Assembly (NCBI GenBank): GCA_963668315.1
Contig: OY764216.1
Span: forward strand, 5,280,001-5,344,000
Direction of reading: 5' to 3'
Length of the DNA stretch: 64,000 nt
DNA from: Spirochaetia bacterium
GTDB lineage: Bacteria; Spirochaetota; Spirochaetia; DSM-2461
Each line of letters opens with the position of its first letter. Within the stretch, counting starts at the first letter, position 1. The notes under the pieces are model-generated. The model was given only the letters and a program-made list of their open reading frames with translations. It ran no database searches and was not told the DNA's origin. Of the stretch, positions 34,476-40,217 are shown one piece after another. A program made the position numbers and the translations under genes.

Positions 34476-36290
34476 ATGAATTTCAATAAATTACAATCGG
34501 CACTCTCATCCATGATTCTCTCCGCATCGGGCTGGAGAAAAGTATTTGCCTCCGACGGCAACGAGGAGAGCCTCATTGAATCAATCACAGAGGAGGACAG
34601 ACTTCTGACAGCCGCCATGGCCTCTGTTTTTGCCGATCTGGTTCTGTCGGCGTCCCAGGGCAGTCCGGCCATTTCTCTGGGAATTGACAGCCGCCCTACC
34701 GGACCCGCCATGGCGGCAGCCATGATCCCCGTTTTTTTAAGTAAGGGGCTGGAAGTGCGTTATACGGGAATCTGCGCGGCCCCGGAAATCATGGCATGGA
34801 CAGGAACGGAGGATTCGCTCGACGGCTTCTGTTATATCTCGGCCAGCCATAATCCGGCGGGACACAACGGTGTGAAGTTCGGTTTGGGCGGAGGCGTTAT
34901 AGGAGGCGGCACGGCAGCGGCTCTTATTGATTCATATAAAGCCTTTACCGGAAAGGAAAGCGTCATGGAGGAACTGGAAGCCCTTCTGAGCAGAAGCCCC
35001 ATTGATTCCGTGCAGACTGTCATGGGCAGATGTGAACTGCATAAGACTGCCTCTTTCAGTTCCTATGAAGCCTTTTCCCGCCGGATAGCTTCCGGAAGCG
35101 ATGCGAAAGAGAATCAGGACGCCTTTTTCACCCTGCTGCAGAAGGGAATAAAGACCCGTCCCCTGGGCGTAATAGCCGAATTAAACGGCAGCGCCCGATC
35201 ACTCTCCATAGATAAGACCTACCTCTCCACGCTGGGAATCAAGGTCATGGCTCTTAATGAAACGCCCGGGCGGTTTGTCCACAGAATCGTTCCCGAAGGA
35301 TTTTCCCTGGATCTCTGCCGGGAAGAGCTGGAAAAGGCCCATGCAGAGGACGATTGCTTTCTTTTCGGCTATGTTCCCGACTGCGACGGAGACAGGGGCA
35401 ACATTGTCTATTTTAATGAAAAATCGGGAAAGGCGGAGATTCTGGAGGCTCAGGAGGTATTTGCCCTGTCCGTTCTCTCCGAGCTGACGGGTATCATCTA
35501 TAACGGATTGGATATTTCCCGGACAGCCGTTGCGGCCAACGGCCCCACCAGCATGCGCATCGACCGGATAGCCGCCGCCCTGGGAGCCCAGGTTTTCCGG
35601 GCAGAGGTGGGAGAGGCCAATGTGGTGAATCTGGGAGCGTCCCTCAGGGAGCAGGGGTGGATTGTCCCCATCCTGGGAGAGGGTTCCAACGGGGGAAATA
35701 TCACTTACCCCGCCCAGGTACGCGACCCCTTGAACACCCTTACGGCTCTTATAAAATTGCTTACGCTCACCGACCGGGGTGAAAAGAGAGGCCTTTTTCA
35801 CATCTGGTGCGATCTGTCATCCCAGGAGGAGAAGTACCGGGACGACTTCTCACTGTCCGATATAATCGCCTCCCTCCCCCTCTTCACCACCACTTCCGCC
35901 TTTGAAGAGAGGGCCAAATTTCCCATAAAGACCGGTGATCACGCCGTTCTGAAAGCCCGTTATGAATCGGTTTTTCCTTCCGAATGGGATTCCAGAAAGG
36001 ACGAATTGGCCGATCGCTTCGGCATTACGGGCTGGGAGGAGAGAAACATGGAAGGGACGGAGGAGCGGACCGGTGTGGGAAAAACCTTCCGTTCCGGAGC
36101 TGAAAAGGGAGGATTCAAAATTCTTTTTCATAATGGGAAGGGAGAGTACACCGCCTACGTATGGATGCGGGGCTCCGGTACGGAACCGGTGTTCCGCGTT
36201 CTGGCCGATTGCGAGGGGAGCAGCCCCGAAAGGGAAGCATGGTTTCTCCAATGGCACAAGGAAATTATTACCCGTGCGGATGAAGGCTGA
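34476..36290 (+). CDS. Alpha-D-phosphohexomutase (PGM/PMM) family
   Basis: DSR, SASHNP (phosphoserine), PDCDGDR metal loop, VGE, GEGSNG and RGSGTEP. Confidence 0.9.
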   Translation: MNFNKLQSALSSMILSASGWRKVFASDGNEESLIESITEEDRLLTAAMASVFADLVLSASQGSPAISLGIDSRPTGPAMAAAMIPVFLSKGLEVRYTGICAAPEIMAWTGTEDSLDGFCYISASHNPAGHNGVKFGLGGGVIGGGTAAALIDSYKAFTGKESVMEELEALLSRSPIDSVQTVMGRCELHKTASFSSYEAFSRRIASGSDAKENQDAFFTLLQKGIKTRPLGVIAELNGSARSLSIDKTYLSTLGIKVMALNETPGRFVHRIVPEGFSLDLCREELEKAHAEDDCFLFGYVPDCDGDRGNIVYFNEKSGKAEILEAQEVFALSVLSELTGIIYNGLDISRTAVAANGPTSMRIDRIAAALGAQVFRAEVGEANVVNLGASLREQGWIVPILGEGSNGGNITYPAQVRDPLNTLTALIKLLTLTDRGEKRGLFHIWCDLSSQEEKYRDDFSLSDIIASLPLFTTTSAFEERAKFPIKTGDHAVLKARYESVFPSEWDSRKDELADRFGITGWEERNMEGTEERTGVGKTFRSGAEKGGFKILFHNGKGEYTAYVWMRGSGTEPVFRVLADCEGSSPEREAWFLQWHKEIITRADEG

Positions 36291-36301
36291 TGCGGGTCGG
36301 C

Positions 36302-36330
36302 TTGACTTAATGCGGCCAGCATGGTAAAAA
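36302..36330 (+). promoter_or_regulatory. Probable promoter of the trpS leader
   Basis: TTGACT-17bp-TAAAAA with TGn extension; +1 would fall near GTG 36337. Confidence 0.55.
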
Positions 36331-36336
36331 TGAATC

Positions 36337-36411
36337 GTGAACAATAGATCAGAACAGAATACGTTCATATCTTGTCTCAATAATATTTCCTGGTGGCGGC
36401 TTTCTATCTAG
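36337..36411 (+). CDS. Trp attenuator leader peptide, 24 aa (MNNRSEQNTFISCLNNISWWRLSI)
   Basis: GTG start, tandem TGG-TGG at 36391-36396, TAG at 36409; WWR as in TrpL peptides. Confidence 0.8.
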   Translation: MNNRSEQNTFISCLNNISWWRLSI

Positions 36412-36460
36412 CCGTCCCCGATTTTGGTTTTAGGCGGCTGAATATTCGGCCGCTTTTTTT
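36391..36460 (+). promoter_or_regulatory. Transcription attenuator (1:2, 2:3 and 3:4 hairpins)
   Basis: GGCGGCT/AGCCGTC (1:2); TAGCCGTC/GGCGGCTG (2:3); GCGGCTGA-ATAT-TCGGCCGC plus T7 (3:4 terminator). Confidence 0.8.
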
Positions 36461-36522
36461 GTCCTTCCTCCGAAGTACAATCACCCTAGGGCCGGATAGG
36501 CCGCGGATGAAGGAGGAAAAAC

Positions 36523-37509
36523 ATGAAAAAGCGTTTGTTCAGCGGCTGCACGCCGTCGGGAAATCTCACTCTGGGTAATTATCTGGGAACGGTACGGGGA
36601 TGGGAAAGAAACCAGGAAACCTGCGACGCCCTTTTTGCCGTTACCGATCTTCACGCTCTGACCGTACCGCGCGACCCGGAGATCCTTCGAAGGAAAAGTC
36701 TTGATTTTCTCTGTCTTTTTATGGCTTGCGGGATAGATCCTCAGAAATCAACCCTTTTCATTCAGTCCCACAATCCCCGCCACTGCGAAGTTTCCTGGAT
36801 TCTCAGCTGTCAGACAGGATGGGGCGAGCTGAGCCGCATGACCCAGTTTAAAAGTAAATCGGCTGCAGACCGGAGGCCAAGCGGCGGGCTGCTGACATAC
36901 CCGGTTCTTATGGCGGCGGACATACTTCTTTACGGTACGGAACTGGTTCCTGTGGGAGAAGACCAGAGGCAGCATATGGAACTGACCCGCCGCCTGGCTA
37001 AGCATTTGAACAGCTGTGCCGGACCGGTTTTTCCCTTGCCGGAGGCAGTGATTCCCCCTTCAACGGGAAGAGTGGCCAATCTTCTCGATCCTACGGCAAA
37101 GATGGATAAATCCCATGATAATAAGGATACCTATATAGCCCTGACCGACACACCCGAAGAGATAAGAAGAAAAATAGGCAAAGCCCGCACCGACTCCAGA
37201 GGGGATTTCGCCATGGATGACAAAGACAGCGGGATCGGCAACCTGGTGCGAATCTATTCAGCTTTGACGGGACTGGGAACGGGTACCATCATATGGGAGT
37301 ATGAGCACAGGGGCTACGGAGCGTTCAAGAGAGATCTGGGAGATATTATCGCGGAGACTCTGACTCCCATCCGGGAAAAGTATAACCGGATTCACAGGGA
37401 AGAGGATTATCTCAAACAGGTTCTTGCCCTGGGAAAGGACAAAGCTCTGGAGAAATCAGAACGGGCATACAAATGTATAAAGGACACCTTCGGGCTTATT
37501 ACCTGTTAA
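36523..37509 (+). CDS. trpS: Tryptophan--tRNA ligase
   Basis: SG..PSG.LTLGNYLG, DLHALT, RMTQFK, YPVLMAADIL, VPVGEDQ.QH and KMDKS. Confidence 0.93.
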   Translation: MKKRLFSGCTPSGNLTLGNYLGTVRGWERNQETCDALFAVTDLHALTVPRDPEILRRKSLDFLCLFMACGIDPQKSTLFIQSHNPRHCEVSWILSCQTGWGELSRMTQFKSKSAADRRPSGGLLTYPVLMAADILLYGTELVPVGEDQRQHMELTRRLAKHLNSCAGPVFPLPEAVIPPSTGRVANLLDPTAKMDKSHDNKDTYIALTDTPEEIRRKIGKARTDSRGDFAMDDKDSGIGNLVRIYSALTGLGTGTIIWEYEHRGYGAFKRDLGDIIAETLTPIREKYNRIHREEDYLKQVLALGKDKALEKSERAYKCIKDTFGLITC

Positions 37510-38842
37510 TCAGATACTCCAGCACCGGATCTTTCCCTTCCTTGAAATCGGCAAAGGAATAGGTAAGGGGAATATCCGGAGAGATCGGTTCATCCCCTCC
37601 CGGCCGCCTGAAGTATTTGGTGGAATAGAAAATACGGATGCCCGAGCGGGGAAGATTAAAGGAGCGGACTTCTCCGTAATGGGAAGCACCGCCTCCCGTA
37701 GCCTCCCCGATGACAAGGGCGCCGGTCTCTTCTTTGAGGGAGAGGGCATTCAACACGGCGGAGGAATAGGTATGACGCCCCACGGCCACATACAGCCCCC
37801 CCTCGCCTAGAGTCCCGGGATTCCGGGCTATACTGCGGATAAACGGATCCAGCAGGGGAGAACTGCCCCCTCCATTATAGCGGAGATCCACCAGAAGACG
37901 CTCATCCTTTTTCTCCTCCAGAAAGGCCGTCAGCCCGGTAAGAAAATCGTCCAGGGGGGGATTTTTCTGATCACGGCATCTATCGTATTGAAAATAGACG
38001 AGATTTTCTCCGGGATAATATTCATACCAGTACCACTCGCCGGGATGGCTGTATTCCACAAGCCCTTCGGTCAGGGGATACTTATCGCCGAGGGAAAGCA
38101 CTTCCCTGATAGAGGAGAGCTCACTTCCGTCCATCCGAGCCAGCTTATCCTCAATGATGAGGCCGTCCTCTCCTTCGGTCCGGAGGGGAAAAAAGCCGTC
38201 AGTTCCGCTGACACCGGCATAACGGAGATAATCGGCATAACTGAAAGCTCCGAGGCTCCTTAAGCCCAGATCAACCGGATTGTCATGGGAAATCAAGGGA
38301 GAAAGAGCCTTTCTCAGCGAATCTGCCTCTATGCCGCCCATATCCAGTAAACGGGTTCCCAGAAGCGTCCGGTGGGAAGGAAGACAGGAAGCCACGAAGA
38401 TCCCTTCTTCAAACTCACGGAGCCCCAGAATCAGGCGGTCCATGTCCGCCGGGGGGAAAACTCTGGTATGACCGTCTCCGATGAGGGCGATCAGTTCCTT
38501 AATCCCCAGGTACATATCCTGATTGGAAGCCGCGGGAATCCGGGAACGCAAATCTCCTATCTTCTCCCGGAACTCTTCCTCCGTAACAGTATGATAAAGA
38601 TCCTTATGCCTCCTGGCCATTTCCCGGGACAGAAAGGTCAGATCGTGATTCCAGTATCTCAGCCTGTGCCTTTCATCGGCCCTCTCCAGCGACTCCCACT
38701 TTTCGGCAGCCTCCTGATCGGTCATGACGGCGAATTGGGGATTATGAAACTGCCCTATTCGCTTTACGTATCTTACAGCCGGAACAGAACCGGCCAGCAG
38801 CAGCAGGAAAAGAACAGCCGGAATCGCCCTCTTAAGAGACAT
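37499..38842 (-). CDS. S41 family peptidase-like protein
   Basis: DGHT, VDLRYNGGG, TYSSA, IGEATGG and I.PDI; N-terminal hydrophobic segment. Confidence 0.8.
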   Translation of the reverse strand: MSLKRAIPAVLFLLLLAGSVPAVRYVKRIGQFHNPQFAVMTDQEAAEKWESLERADERHRLRYWNHDLTFLSREMARRHKDLYHTVTEEEFREKIGDLRSRIPAASNQDMYLGIKELIALIGDGHTRVFPPADMDRLILGLREFEEGIFVASCLPSHRTLLGTRLLDMGGIEADSLRKALSPLISHDNPVDLGLRSLGAFSYADYLRYAGVSGTDGFFPLRTEGEDGLIIEDKLARMDGSELSSIREVLSLGDKYPLTEGLVEYSHPGEWYWYEYYPGENLVYFQYDRCRDQKNPPLDDFLTGLTAFLEEKKDERLLVDLRYNGGGSSPLLDPFIRSIARNPGTLGEGGLYVAVGRHTYSSAVLNALSLKEETGALVIGEATGGGASHYGEVRSFNLPRSGIRIFYSTKYFRRPGGDEPISPDIPLTYSFADFKEGKDPVLEYLINR

Positions 38843-39479
38843 ACCCGGCCAGTTCCACAGTCTTGTTCAGAACCCGGCAGGCACCGGCGGCGGATAACTG
38901 CTCCGGGGTAAAGGAAGAGCTGATCCCCCAGCAGTCGCAACCGGCGGCGCTGGCTGCTTCGGCGCCGTTCAGGGCGTCTTCCATGACAAGGCAGTCGGCC
39001 GGGTTCTCTCCCAGCCTCTCGCAGGCGGTTCGATAGATCTCGGGATCGGGTTTCTTTTTAACCACGTCGTCTCCGCCCAGAACCGTATGGAAAAGAGCCT
39101 TGTCGATTCCGGCCGCTTTGAGATTGGCATTGATCTTTATATGGTCGGCGCTGCTGGCGAGCGCCAGTTTATACCCCCGGCGGCGGAGTTCCGCCAGCAT
39201 GGCCGGTACTCCTTCGAAAAGGCCGATTCTGTCGTCCACCATCTCGAGATAGATCTGATAGACCCGGTCTTTCATCTCCTTCTTATACTCAACCCCGTAT
39301 TTTCCCGCCACACCGCCGATATACCGGTCTTCTCCGGCACCGACGAAGGGAACAAAGTCCTCGGGCTGCGCATCCACGCCGTACTCTTTCAGACCGGCGA
39401 TGGCCGCCGCTTCAATAACCGGTTCAGAATCGACAAGAACCCCATCCATATCAAAGATGAGGGAAGTATAGATTTTCAT
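38832..39479 (-). CDS. HAD family phosphatase
   Basis: FDMDGVLVDS, ASS, KPDPEIY and EDALNG. Confidence 0.92.
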   Translation of the reverse strand: MKIYTSLIFDMDGVLVDSEPVIEAAAIAGLKEYGVDAQPEDFVPFVGAGEDRYIGGVAGKYGVEYKKEMKDRVYQIYLEMVDDRIGLFEGVPAMLAELRRRGYKLALASSADHIKINANLKAAGIDKALFHTVLGGDDVVKKKPDPEIYRTACERLGENPADCLVMEDALNGAEAASAAGCDCWGISSSFTPEQLSAAGACRVLNKTVELAGYVS

Positions 39480-39502
39480 ATATCTGCTCCCTGTGGGAAA
39501 TA

Positions 39503-40045
39503 TTAACCGTTTGTGCTCAGAAAATCCCAGATCAGCTGCAGGTTTTCCTCGGGCGACGCTTCATCCAGATTGATGACAAGATCGGCGATCTGCCTGTTCA
39601 GGCTGTCCCGCCTGAGATAGATTTCATGAAAGTCCTCCCGCGGATGCTCCTCGGAGAGGAAAGGGGGCCTGCCCTTCGCCATGATTCTCCCGTAGAGCAG
39701 TTCCTCGGGCAGATAGAGATAGACAACGCTTCCCTCTTCTCTTAAGAGGGACATGGCTTCATCATTCTCGATGGTTCCTCCCCCCAGGGAGATAACCGCC
39801 TGCTTGGTTCCCGGATTAAATCTCTTGAGAACGCCGCGGACCGCTTCGGTCTCAAGTTCCCTTAACCTCTCCACTCCTTCGGCACGGAACAGATCCCGGA
39901 CCGTGGCGTAATGATTAGCCGCCGGCGTATTTAGAACAAGCTGATCCAGATCATACCAGGCACATCCTTTCCTGTTGGCCAGCATATTGCCGAGAGTCGT
40001 TTTACCGCAATGTTTTATTCCGCTGAGAACGAGTGTTTTACGCAT
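39503..40045 (-). CDS. aroK: Shikimate kinase
   Basis: GIKHCGKTT P-loop, DLD, LRELE, SLGGG and GRP; start 40045 or 40060. Confidence 0.85.
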   Translation of the reverse strand: MRKTLVLSGIKHCGKTTLGNMLANRKGCAWYDLDQLVLNTPAANHYATVRDLFRAEGVERLRELETEAVRGVLKRFNPGTKQAVISLGGGTIENDEAMSLLREEGSVVYLYLPEELLYGRIMAKGRPPFLSEEHPREDFHEIYLRRDSLNRQIADLVINLDEASPEENLQLIWDFLSTNG

Positions 40046-40217
40046 AGGATATAATGGCATTTTTAATAGAACAGTTCAAGATGATAAGCATATAATTGGC
40101 CGCCGGGTTCATAAAAGAGTCTCCTCCCCCTGATCCGGTCTCCTCTTTTTTCCTCCGGAGCCGGTTCCGGCTTGACGAAAAAGTAAAAATAGATTTTTCT
40201 TTAGAGAGGGGGATCCC

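Follow-up and report, generated by a model that had tools for sequence, protein, structure and literature searches.

Is the second of two tryptophan-tRNA ligase genes (trpS) of a Spirochaetia bacterium controlled by a leader peptide encoded just in front of it? The window (i.e., the whole 64,000-nt stretch that we analyzed) carries a phosphohexomutase-like gene that scores below the family cut-offs (positions 34476 to 36290) and this trpS (36523 to 37509), both on the plus strand, as are all of the leader features between them. The original prediction had read this leader as a ribosome-sensing Trp switch, probably leaderless. Our analyses support this as the best reading, with the leader kept in 4/4 orthologs. 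On the basis of sequence comparisons and folding models, the conserved Trp-Trp leader with its alternative hairpins very probably acts as a ribosome-mediated attenuator of the second trpS, induced when charged tRNA-Trp is short.

The leader ORF and its promoter

A 24-codon ORF that was missing from the program-made list of ORFs runs, as originally claimed, from a GTG at 36337 to a TAG at 36411 and ends in ISWWRLSI; its tandem Trp codons (TGG TGG; 36391 to 36396) are the predicted sensor. The promoter-like boxes and the absence of a Shine-Dalgarno (SD) sequence before the GTG were likewise borne out. A −35 box, TTGACT (36302 to 36307), begins 35 nt upstream of the GTG, and an extended −10-like box (36322 to 36330) consists of TG followed by TAAAAA (36325 to 36330), which begins 12 nt upstream and is imperfect because its last base is A. 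A promoter scan preferred AAAAAT, one base later (9/12 matches).

We surveyed promoter spacing in 1,508 genes of the source genome (G000) that have an unambiguous ATG in rough gene calls. The −10-like hexamers peak at −12 (70/753 genes without an SD versus 5/755 with one), and −35 is the peak position of TTGAC/TTGCC (17 genes versus 2). By this survey, leaderless genes are common in G000, and the boxes of the leader, at exactly −35 and −12, have the modal leaderless spacing. The leader mRNA is thus, as far as its sequence tells, probably leaderless, with its predicted start at the GTG itself. Leaderless mRNAs are documented in another spirochaete, Borrelia (PMC5314773). The housekeeping trpS (G000:C1, about 5090030, minus strand) is probably leaderless too, because, in both G000 and one relative (G003), its ATG lacks an SD and is preceded at 9 nt by a −10-like box. 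An out-of-frame ATG that opens 5 codons (36330 to 36347) overlaps the −10 box and the leader start and could matter only on read-through from the upstream gene.

Three relatives (G003, G038, and G060) carry orthologs of the second trpS, and conservation of a WW leader among orthologs was a check that the original prediction had proposed. In all four genomes, TTGAC is invariant and is followed after 35 to 36 nt by a start codon (GTG in G000 and ATG at the equivalent place in the relatives) that lacks an SD and opens an ORF of 20 to 25 codons containing WW or WWW. The G003 leader likewise has 24 codons, with WWR at codons 19 to 21. We compared 186 trpS loci whose upstream sequence covered 220 nt or more, a set that includes near-duplicates; the control loci encode distant TrpRSs (38 to 49% identity) and come, among the matches listed, from genome contigs (80/88) and metagenomes (80 of 594). 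A WW/WxW ORF occurred in range at eight of the 186 loci, the promoter spacing accompanied it only at the four orthologs, and none of the other 182 loci had both features. No further carrier emerged from an order-level search, from searches of relatives around G060 and G038, or among the matches listed in the genome-contig and metagenome scans.

Alternative hairpins and the output of the proposed switch

The ORF overlaps a set of mutually exclusive 1:2, 2:3, and 3:4 hairpins, which fold as originally claimed (helix energies, −14.8, −10.9, and −15.6 kcal/mol, respectively). Segment 1 (36391 to 36401; 10/11 nt identical in G003) is the 5′ arm of the 1:2 helix. Segment 2 (36409 to 36419; 11/11 nt identical) starts at the leader stop codon and pairs with segment 1 or 3, which compete for it because both contain an identical 7-mer. 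Segment 3 (36433 to 36442; 9/10 nt identical) is either an arm of the 2:3 antiterminator or the 5′ arm of the 3:4 terminator. Segment 4 with its T7 tract (36445 to 36460; 14/17 nt identical over 36445 to 36461) completes the intrinsic terminator. The terminator-like stem spans 36432 to 36455 and the T7 tract 36454 to 36460, and they form the sole such site in 35500 to 37000; the original prediction of a GC stem plus T7 about 60 bp before trpS agrees with the observed distance of 62 nt.

Between G000 and G003, segments 1 to 4 are identical at 44/49 nt and the loops and spacers at 17/55, compared with 23/54 in leader codons 1 to 18 and 37/100 at the fourfold sites of trpS. Since the segments are conserved while codons 1 to 18 and the loops stay near background, selection appears to act on the Trp codons and the pairing segments and not on the whole peptide. 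Four leaders are readable, and past the promoter an alignment is obtained only for those of G000 and G003; eight further proteins of the clade (P0001, P0003 to P0005, P0007, P0008, P0010, and P0013) lack upstream DNA that can be read.

None of 200 shuffles folded as well as the whole leader (z = −4.39). In snapshots of the nascent RNA, the 2:3 helix (−11.9 kcal/mol) ranks first at 105 nt, while segment 4 is still incomplete, only when a ribosome sits at the Trp codons. The RNA forms 1:2 and then 3:4 when no ribosome is present, and 3:4 alone when a ribosome is at the stop codon. At equilibrium, the terminator wins in the full leader in all states, including that with a masked footprint of the stalled ribosome. 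The switch would therefore have to be kinetic, because 2:3 is weaker than 3:4 and the terminator is kept at equilibrium. No Rfam family reached its gathering score in the window, and neither the T-box (RF00230) nor Trp_leader (RF00513) was among the eight covariance-model matches at an E value of ≤10 in 36250 to 36560, in agreement with the original report of no T-box at the leader.

We propose that a sigma70-type promoter would start the mRNA at the GTG, on which a ribosome would load without an SD. When Trp-tRNA is ample, the ribosome would reach the stop codon and cover segment 2; when no ribosome is loaded, 1:2 would form. In either case, 3:4 and the U7 tract would terminate transcription near 36460. 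When Trp-tRNA is scarce, the ribosome would stall at codons 19 and 20 and cover segment 1 only, so that 2:3 would pair before segment 4 is made and the polymerase would read on.

A second, translational tier may follow. The SD of trpS (AAGGAGG; 36510 to 36516), which can be read directly from the sequence, is predicted to pair with an anti-SD, segment 5 (36462 to 36471; 9/11 nt identical in G003 over 36462 to 36472), and this helix is the strongest element of the leader (−24.6 kcal/mol). Segment 6 (36488 to 36498) is the weakly supported predicted partner of a freed segment 4. The 4:6 helix would enclose the anti-SD and exclude the anti-SD:SD pairing, and it gives the best structure at 161 nt when a ribosome is stalled. 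Less certainly, segments 4 and 6 would thereby keep the anti-SD off the SD and leave read-through transcripts translatable, and leak-through transcripts in the off fold would keep their SD hidden. The 4:6 duplex was equaled in 34/1,000 shuffles for G000, 403/1,000 for G003, and 0/1,000 for G060. From the off to the on fold, the cost of opening the ribosome-binding site falls from 8.5 to 5.2 kcal/mol in G000, from 5.0 to 3.1 in G003, and from 10.6 to 2.8 in G060. In a full-length fold with 2:3 held, the SD remains hidden (unpaired, 0.15 versus 0.14). On these models, an SD lock has about an even chance of operating at the G000 locus.

The output appears to differ among the carriers. An intrinsic terminator precedes trpS in G000, G003, and G038 and is absent in G060, whose leader has no T tract after 3:4, gives the clearest SD switch, and in the folding models appears to use a translational output only. 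The G038 leader has an extra hairpin ahead of its terminator and weak SD occlusion; when 2:3 is held, its downstream terminator still forms, and its antiterminator, which folding did not recover, was recognized solely by eye. The four leaders form a short natural series whose common sensor would drive either a transcriptional or a translational output. They also bear on a reading in which the Trp sensor is real, its main output is translational (i.e., SD occlusion) or Rho dependent, and the T7 hairpin is secondary. The strength of the anti-SD:SD helix, the conservation of the anti-SD in G003, and the T-less leader of G060 speak for it. Against these, the GC stem runs directly into T7 in both G000 and G003, and G038 retains a terminator where SD occlusion is weak. 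We regard this reading as unlikely.

Considerably less probable still is that the hairpin and T7 merely terminate the upstream mutase gene and that the WW ORF is incidental. That gene stops 11 nt short of the −35 box, no further terminator-like site separates it from the leader, and the terminator by itself does not exceed chance, because shuffles of 35500 to 37000 give 2.2 ± 1.7 such sites. However, the promoter spacing, start codon, and WW are kept while the DNA ahead of them changes: G060 has a different ORF there, and G003 and G038 have unrelated sequence. Furthermore, an ORF of 8 to 45 aa with WW behind the fixed GTG arose in only 2/5,000 shuffles of the leader sequence, and a bare terminator would separate trpS from its only visible promoter. 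Under attenuation, the T7 hairpin may double as the terminator of the mutase gene. Least credible of all is that the leader senses general ribosome stalling (i.e., antibiotic or peptide arrest) instead of the Trp-tRNA supply: an N/R-rich stretch of a similar kind does open three of the four leader peptides, but WW is what the leaders share beyond this opening and a Ser that precedes it in three of them, codons 1 to 18 lie near background identity, and the target gene encodes the cognate synthetase.

The second trpS and comparison with known systems

The gene that was called trpS is correctly named: its 328-aa product, of the E. coli/Bacillus type, scores 294 bits against TIGR00233 (cut-off, 177). 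It is nevertheless an auxiliary second copy and not the housekeeping gene, which lies at G000:C1:5089071-5090018, encodes a paralog 32% identical to the second enzyme, and is present in 4/4 carriers. Matches to the second trpS at an E value of ≤1e−60 occur in 7/401 genomes of the class, namely G000, G003, G038, and G060 (50 to 100% identity) and three that fall elsewhere in the tree (41 to 43%). The second trpS is thus rare (4/401 genomes of the class, from three families, and 2/38 in its own family), and a search of two other genomes of the genus, of 96% and 80% completeness, did not find it. FlaA scored above its cut-off in G000 and the three other carriers versus 0/14 control genomes, and we therefore take all four as spirochaetes. 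An internal TAG suspected in the G060 gene is its normal stop codon. G000 has one tRNA-Trp among 48 tRNA genes and no second one. Downstream of the second trpS in G000, a 447-aa gene and a HAD-family gene follow at 37499 to 39479 (region, 37499 to 40060). In G003, the ORFs directly after trpS are presumably, by resemblance, shikimate-kinase-like and peptidase-like, so the two genes of G000 are extra there.

Most of the named best protein matches (46 to 50%) are clostridial. Its patchy distribution, together with its placement among nonspirochaete sequences, suggests that the second trpS was acquired. The clade that contains the spirochaete sequences comprised 12 rows with an SH-aLRT value of 94 in a 109-row quick tree and 9 rows with a value of 97 in a 49-row tree; three sequences with internal duplications (P0002, P0006, and P0009) were excluded from the trees and counts. 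This clade was separate from the actinobacterial auxiliary TrpRS in both trees. A tree test spoke against common ancestry with the actinobacterial enzymes, in that a joint clade was rejected (AU, P = 0.0085; quick search under LG+G4, with composition warnings on the actinobacterial rows).

The closest likeness is to the auxiliary trpS attenuator of Streptomyces, where a leaderless Trp leader ORF also precedes trpS. Regulation of trpRS1 in Streptomyces coelicolor has reportedly been studied by experiment. In S. lividans, trpL2 is described as a leaderless leader with one Trp that lies before trpS and has hairpins but no U-rich tract (PMC8079986), and a candidate attenuator was predicted before trpS2 of S. 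avermitilis (PMC1262725). In our data, a Trp leader occurred at 8/9 second-copy actinobacterial trpS loci versus 0/43 other actinobacterial loci. The −10 filter used for this count was strict and excluded G000 and G003 too. Several of these leaders have, by eye, a pyrimidine-rich anti-SD after the hairpin, and a 12-mer is apparently common to the G003 and Planobispora leaders. As in the actinobacterial module, the regulated gene is a second copy beside a housekeeping trpS, in 4/4 spirochaete carriers. However, the phyla differ, the enzymes do not form one clade, the spirochaete leader ORFs are longer (20 to 25 codons versus 13 to 22), and G000 has a clear T7 terminator, unlike trpL2 as described. 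The second trpS leader would work like the Streptomyces system, but, judged from these sequences, it is probably not a member of it by descent.

The analogy to the antibiotic-resistant TrpRS of Streptomyces, which the original prediction had mentioned, is not supported at the level of residues. Lys at position 9, reportedly the Streptomyces resistance residue, occurs in 5/9 of the actinobacterial copies and is absent from the spirochaete enzyme. Position 9 is T, A, or S in 10/12 sequences of the spirochaete-containing clade, compared with the usual Gln in 271/314 others, and it is Lys (22/30) or Arg (8/30) in the housekeeping type. The indolmycin contacts of TrpRS, given as His43, Asp132, and Gln147 in a preprint (bioRxiv 10.64898/2026.03.23.713518), are kept in the clade (His43 and Gln147 in 12/12 and Asp132 in 11/12). 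Indolmycin resistance of the second TrpRS is therefore not supported by its sequence. The motif KMDKS was discarded as a resistance mark, as it also occurs in five Acholeplasmataceae TrpRSs with upstream DNA that looks T-box-like by eye. These results raise the question of whether the second TrpRS is held in reserve for a higher Trp affinity under starvation or for inhibitor tolerance.

The claim of E. coli trpL-type logic is supported by the predicted 1:2/2:3/3:4 pairings, the Trp codons, and the U-tract terminator. The E. coli leader peptide presumably also has its tandem Trp followed by Arg. The spirochaete leader differs in that it has no match to the Rfam Trp_leader family, is predicted to be leaderless, would control a synthetase instead of a biosynthetic operon, and has the extra predicted anti-SD tier. 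With the T-boxes of Bacillota trpS genes it shares the input (i.e., uncharged tRNA-Trp) and the type of target but, as noted above, not the element itself. The mechanism is a textbook one. Control of a spare trpS by a leader peptide, as in Streptomyces, would extend to spirochaetes, apparently by convergence. In the literature searched, we found no trpS attenuator described in spirochaetes; the 2010 survey of the Lyubetsky group and the supplements of PMC4833913 and PMC2965389 may list this leader.

Leader peptides elsewhere in the genome

The G000 genome contains 107 leaderless-type intergenic short ORFs, 10 of which are followed by a terminator-like site. Two of the 107 contain WW, and only the trpS leader among these is followed by a terminator. 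The 10 include leaders before asd (Thr), valS (Val), a PRK06855 aminotransferase gene (Ala), and an aldolase-like gene (Phe/Tyr). In relatives, the Ala run (at least 5 Ala) recurs at 15/28 family loci, the Val leader at 4/30 family loci, and the Phe/Tyr leader in 3/11 genomes. Leaderless leader peptides thus seem to be routine in this organism, which raises the prior for the trpS leader. The trp operon of G000 has no leader ORF.

A broader scenario, which we hold tentatively and rate at somewhat under an even chance, would be that spirochaetes independently reached the Streptomyces solution (i.e., an acquired spare TrpRS, a leaderless Trp leader, and a terminator plus an SD lock). The output would have been rewired among the four relatives into termination plus an SD lock, a longer terminator cascade, or an SD lock alone. 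The whole would belong to a family-wide set of leaderless amino acid gauges (Trp, Val, Ala, Phe/Tyr, Thr, and Lys) whose codons predict the functions of unassigned enzymes.

The Phe/Tyr leader (G000:C1:4111466, minus strand) has a conserved FFGFYFYFR core and a terminator and is found in G000, G001, and G045. It precedes a 311-aa aldolase-like gene that reaches neither the PRK08195 nor the TIGR03217 cut-off; the leader codons suggest a role for this gene in aromatic amino acid metabolism, although PF00793 already has two matches per genome. The Ala-run leader before the PRK06855 aminotransferase gene (G000:C1:255819, minus strand) predicts that this gene encodes an alanine aminotransferase and is controlled by Ala attenuation. 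The Val leader before valS (G000:C1:2931215, plus strand) and the Thr-run leader before asd (466043, minus strand) each have a terminator, as does the leader ahead of lysS (G000:C1, about 3906516, plus strand), which was read by hand and is Lys rich (5 Lys). The lysS ORF itself (G000:C1:3906608-3907531) is short (289 aa, covering 1 to 267 of a 488-position model) and is possibly a split gene or an assembly error.

The single T-box-like match of G000 (G000:C1:2656507-2656778, plus strand; 71 bits; E = 4.7e−15) lies below the cut-off of 93 and precedes an ORF that we take, from its N terminus, to be thrS; T-boxes and leader peptides would then coexist in this spirochaete. A pattern search for the palindrome GTTTCTA..TAGAAAC did not list it at the second trpS promoter. 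The palindrome or its halves lie over the trp operon and trpA promoters (G000:C1:1439066, 1445641, 4026211, and 1902246), and the motif also occurs before trpE in G001, G003, and G038 as a candidate operator. A TrpR-like (PF01371) gene is present in 5/5 genomes searched.
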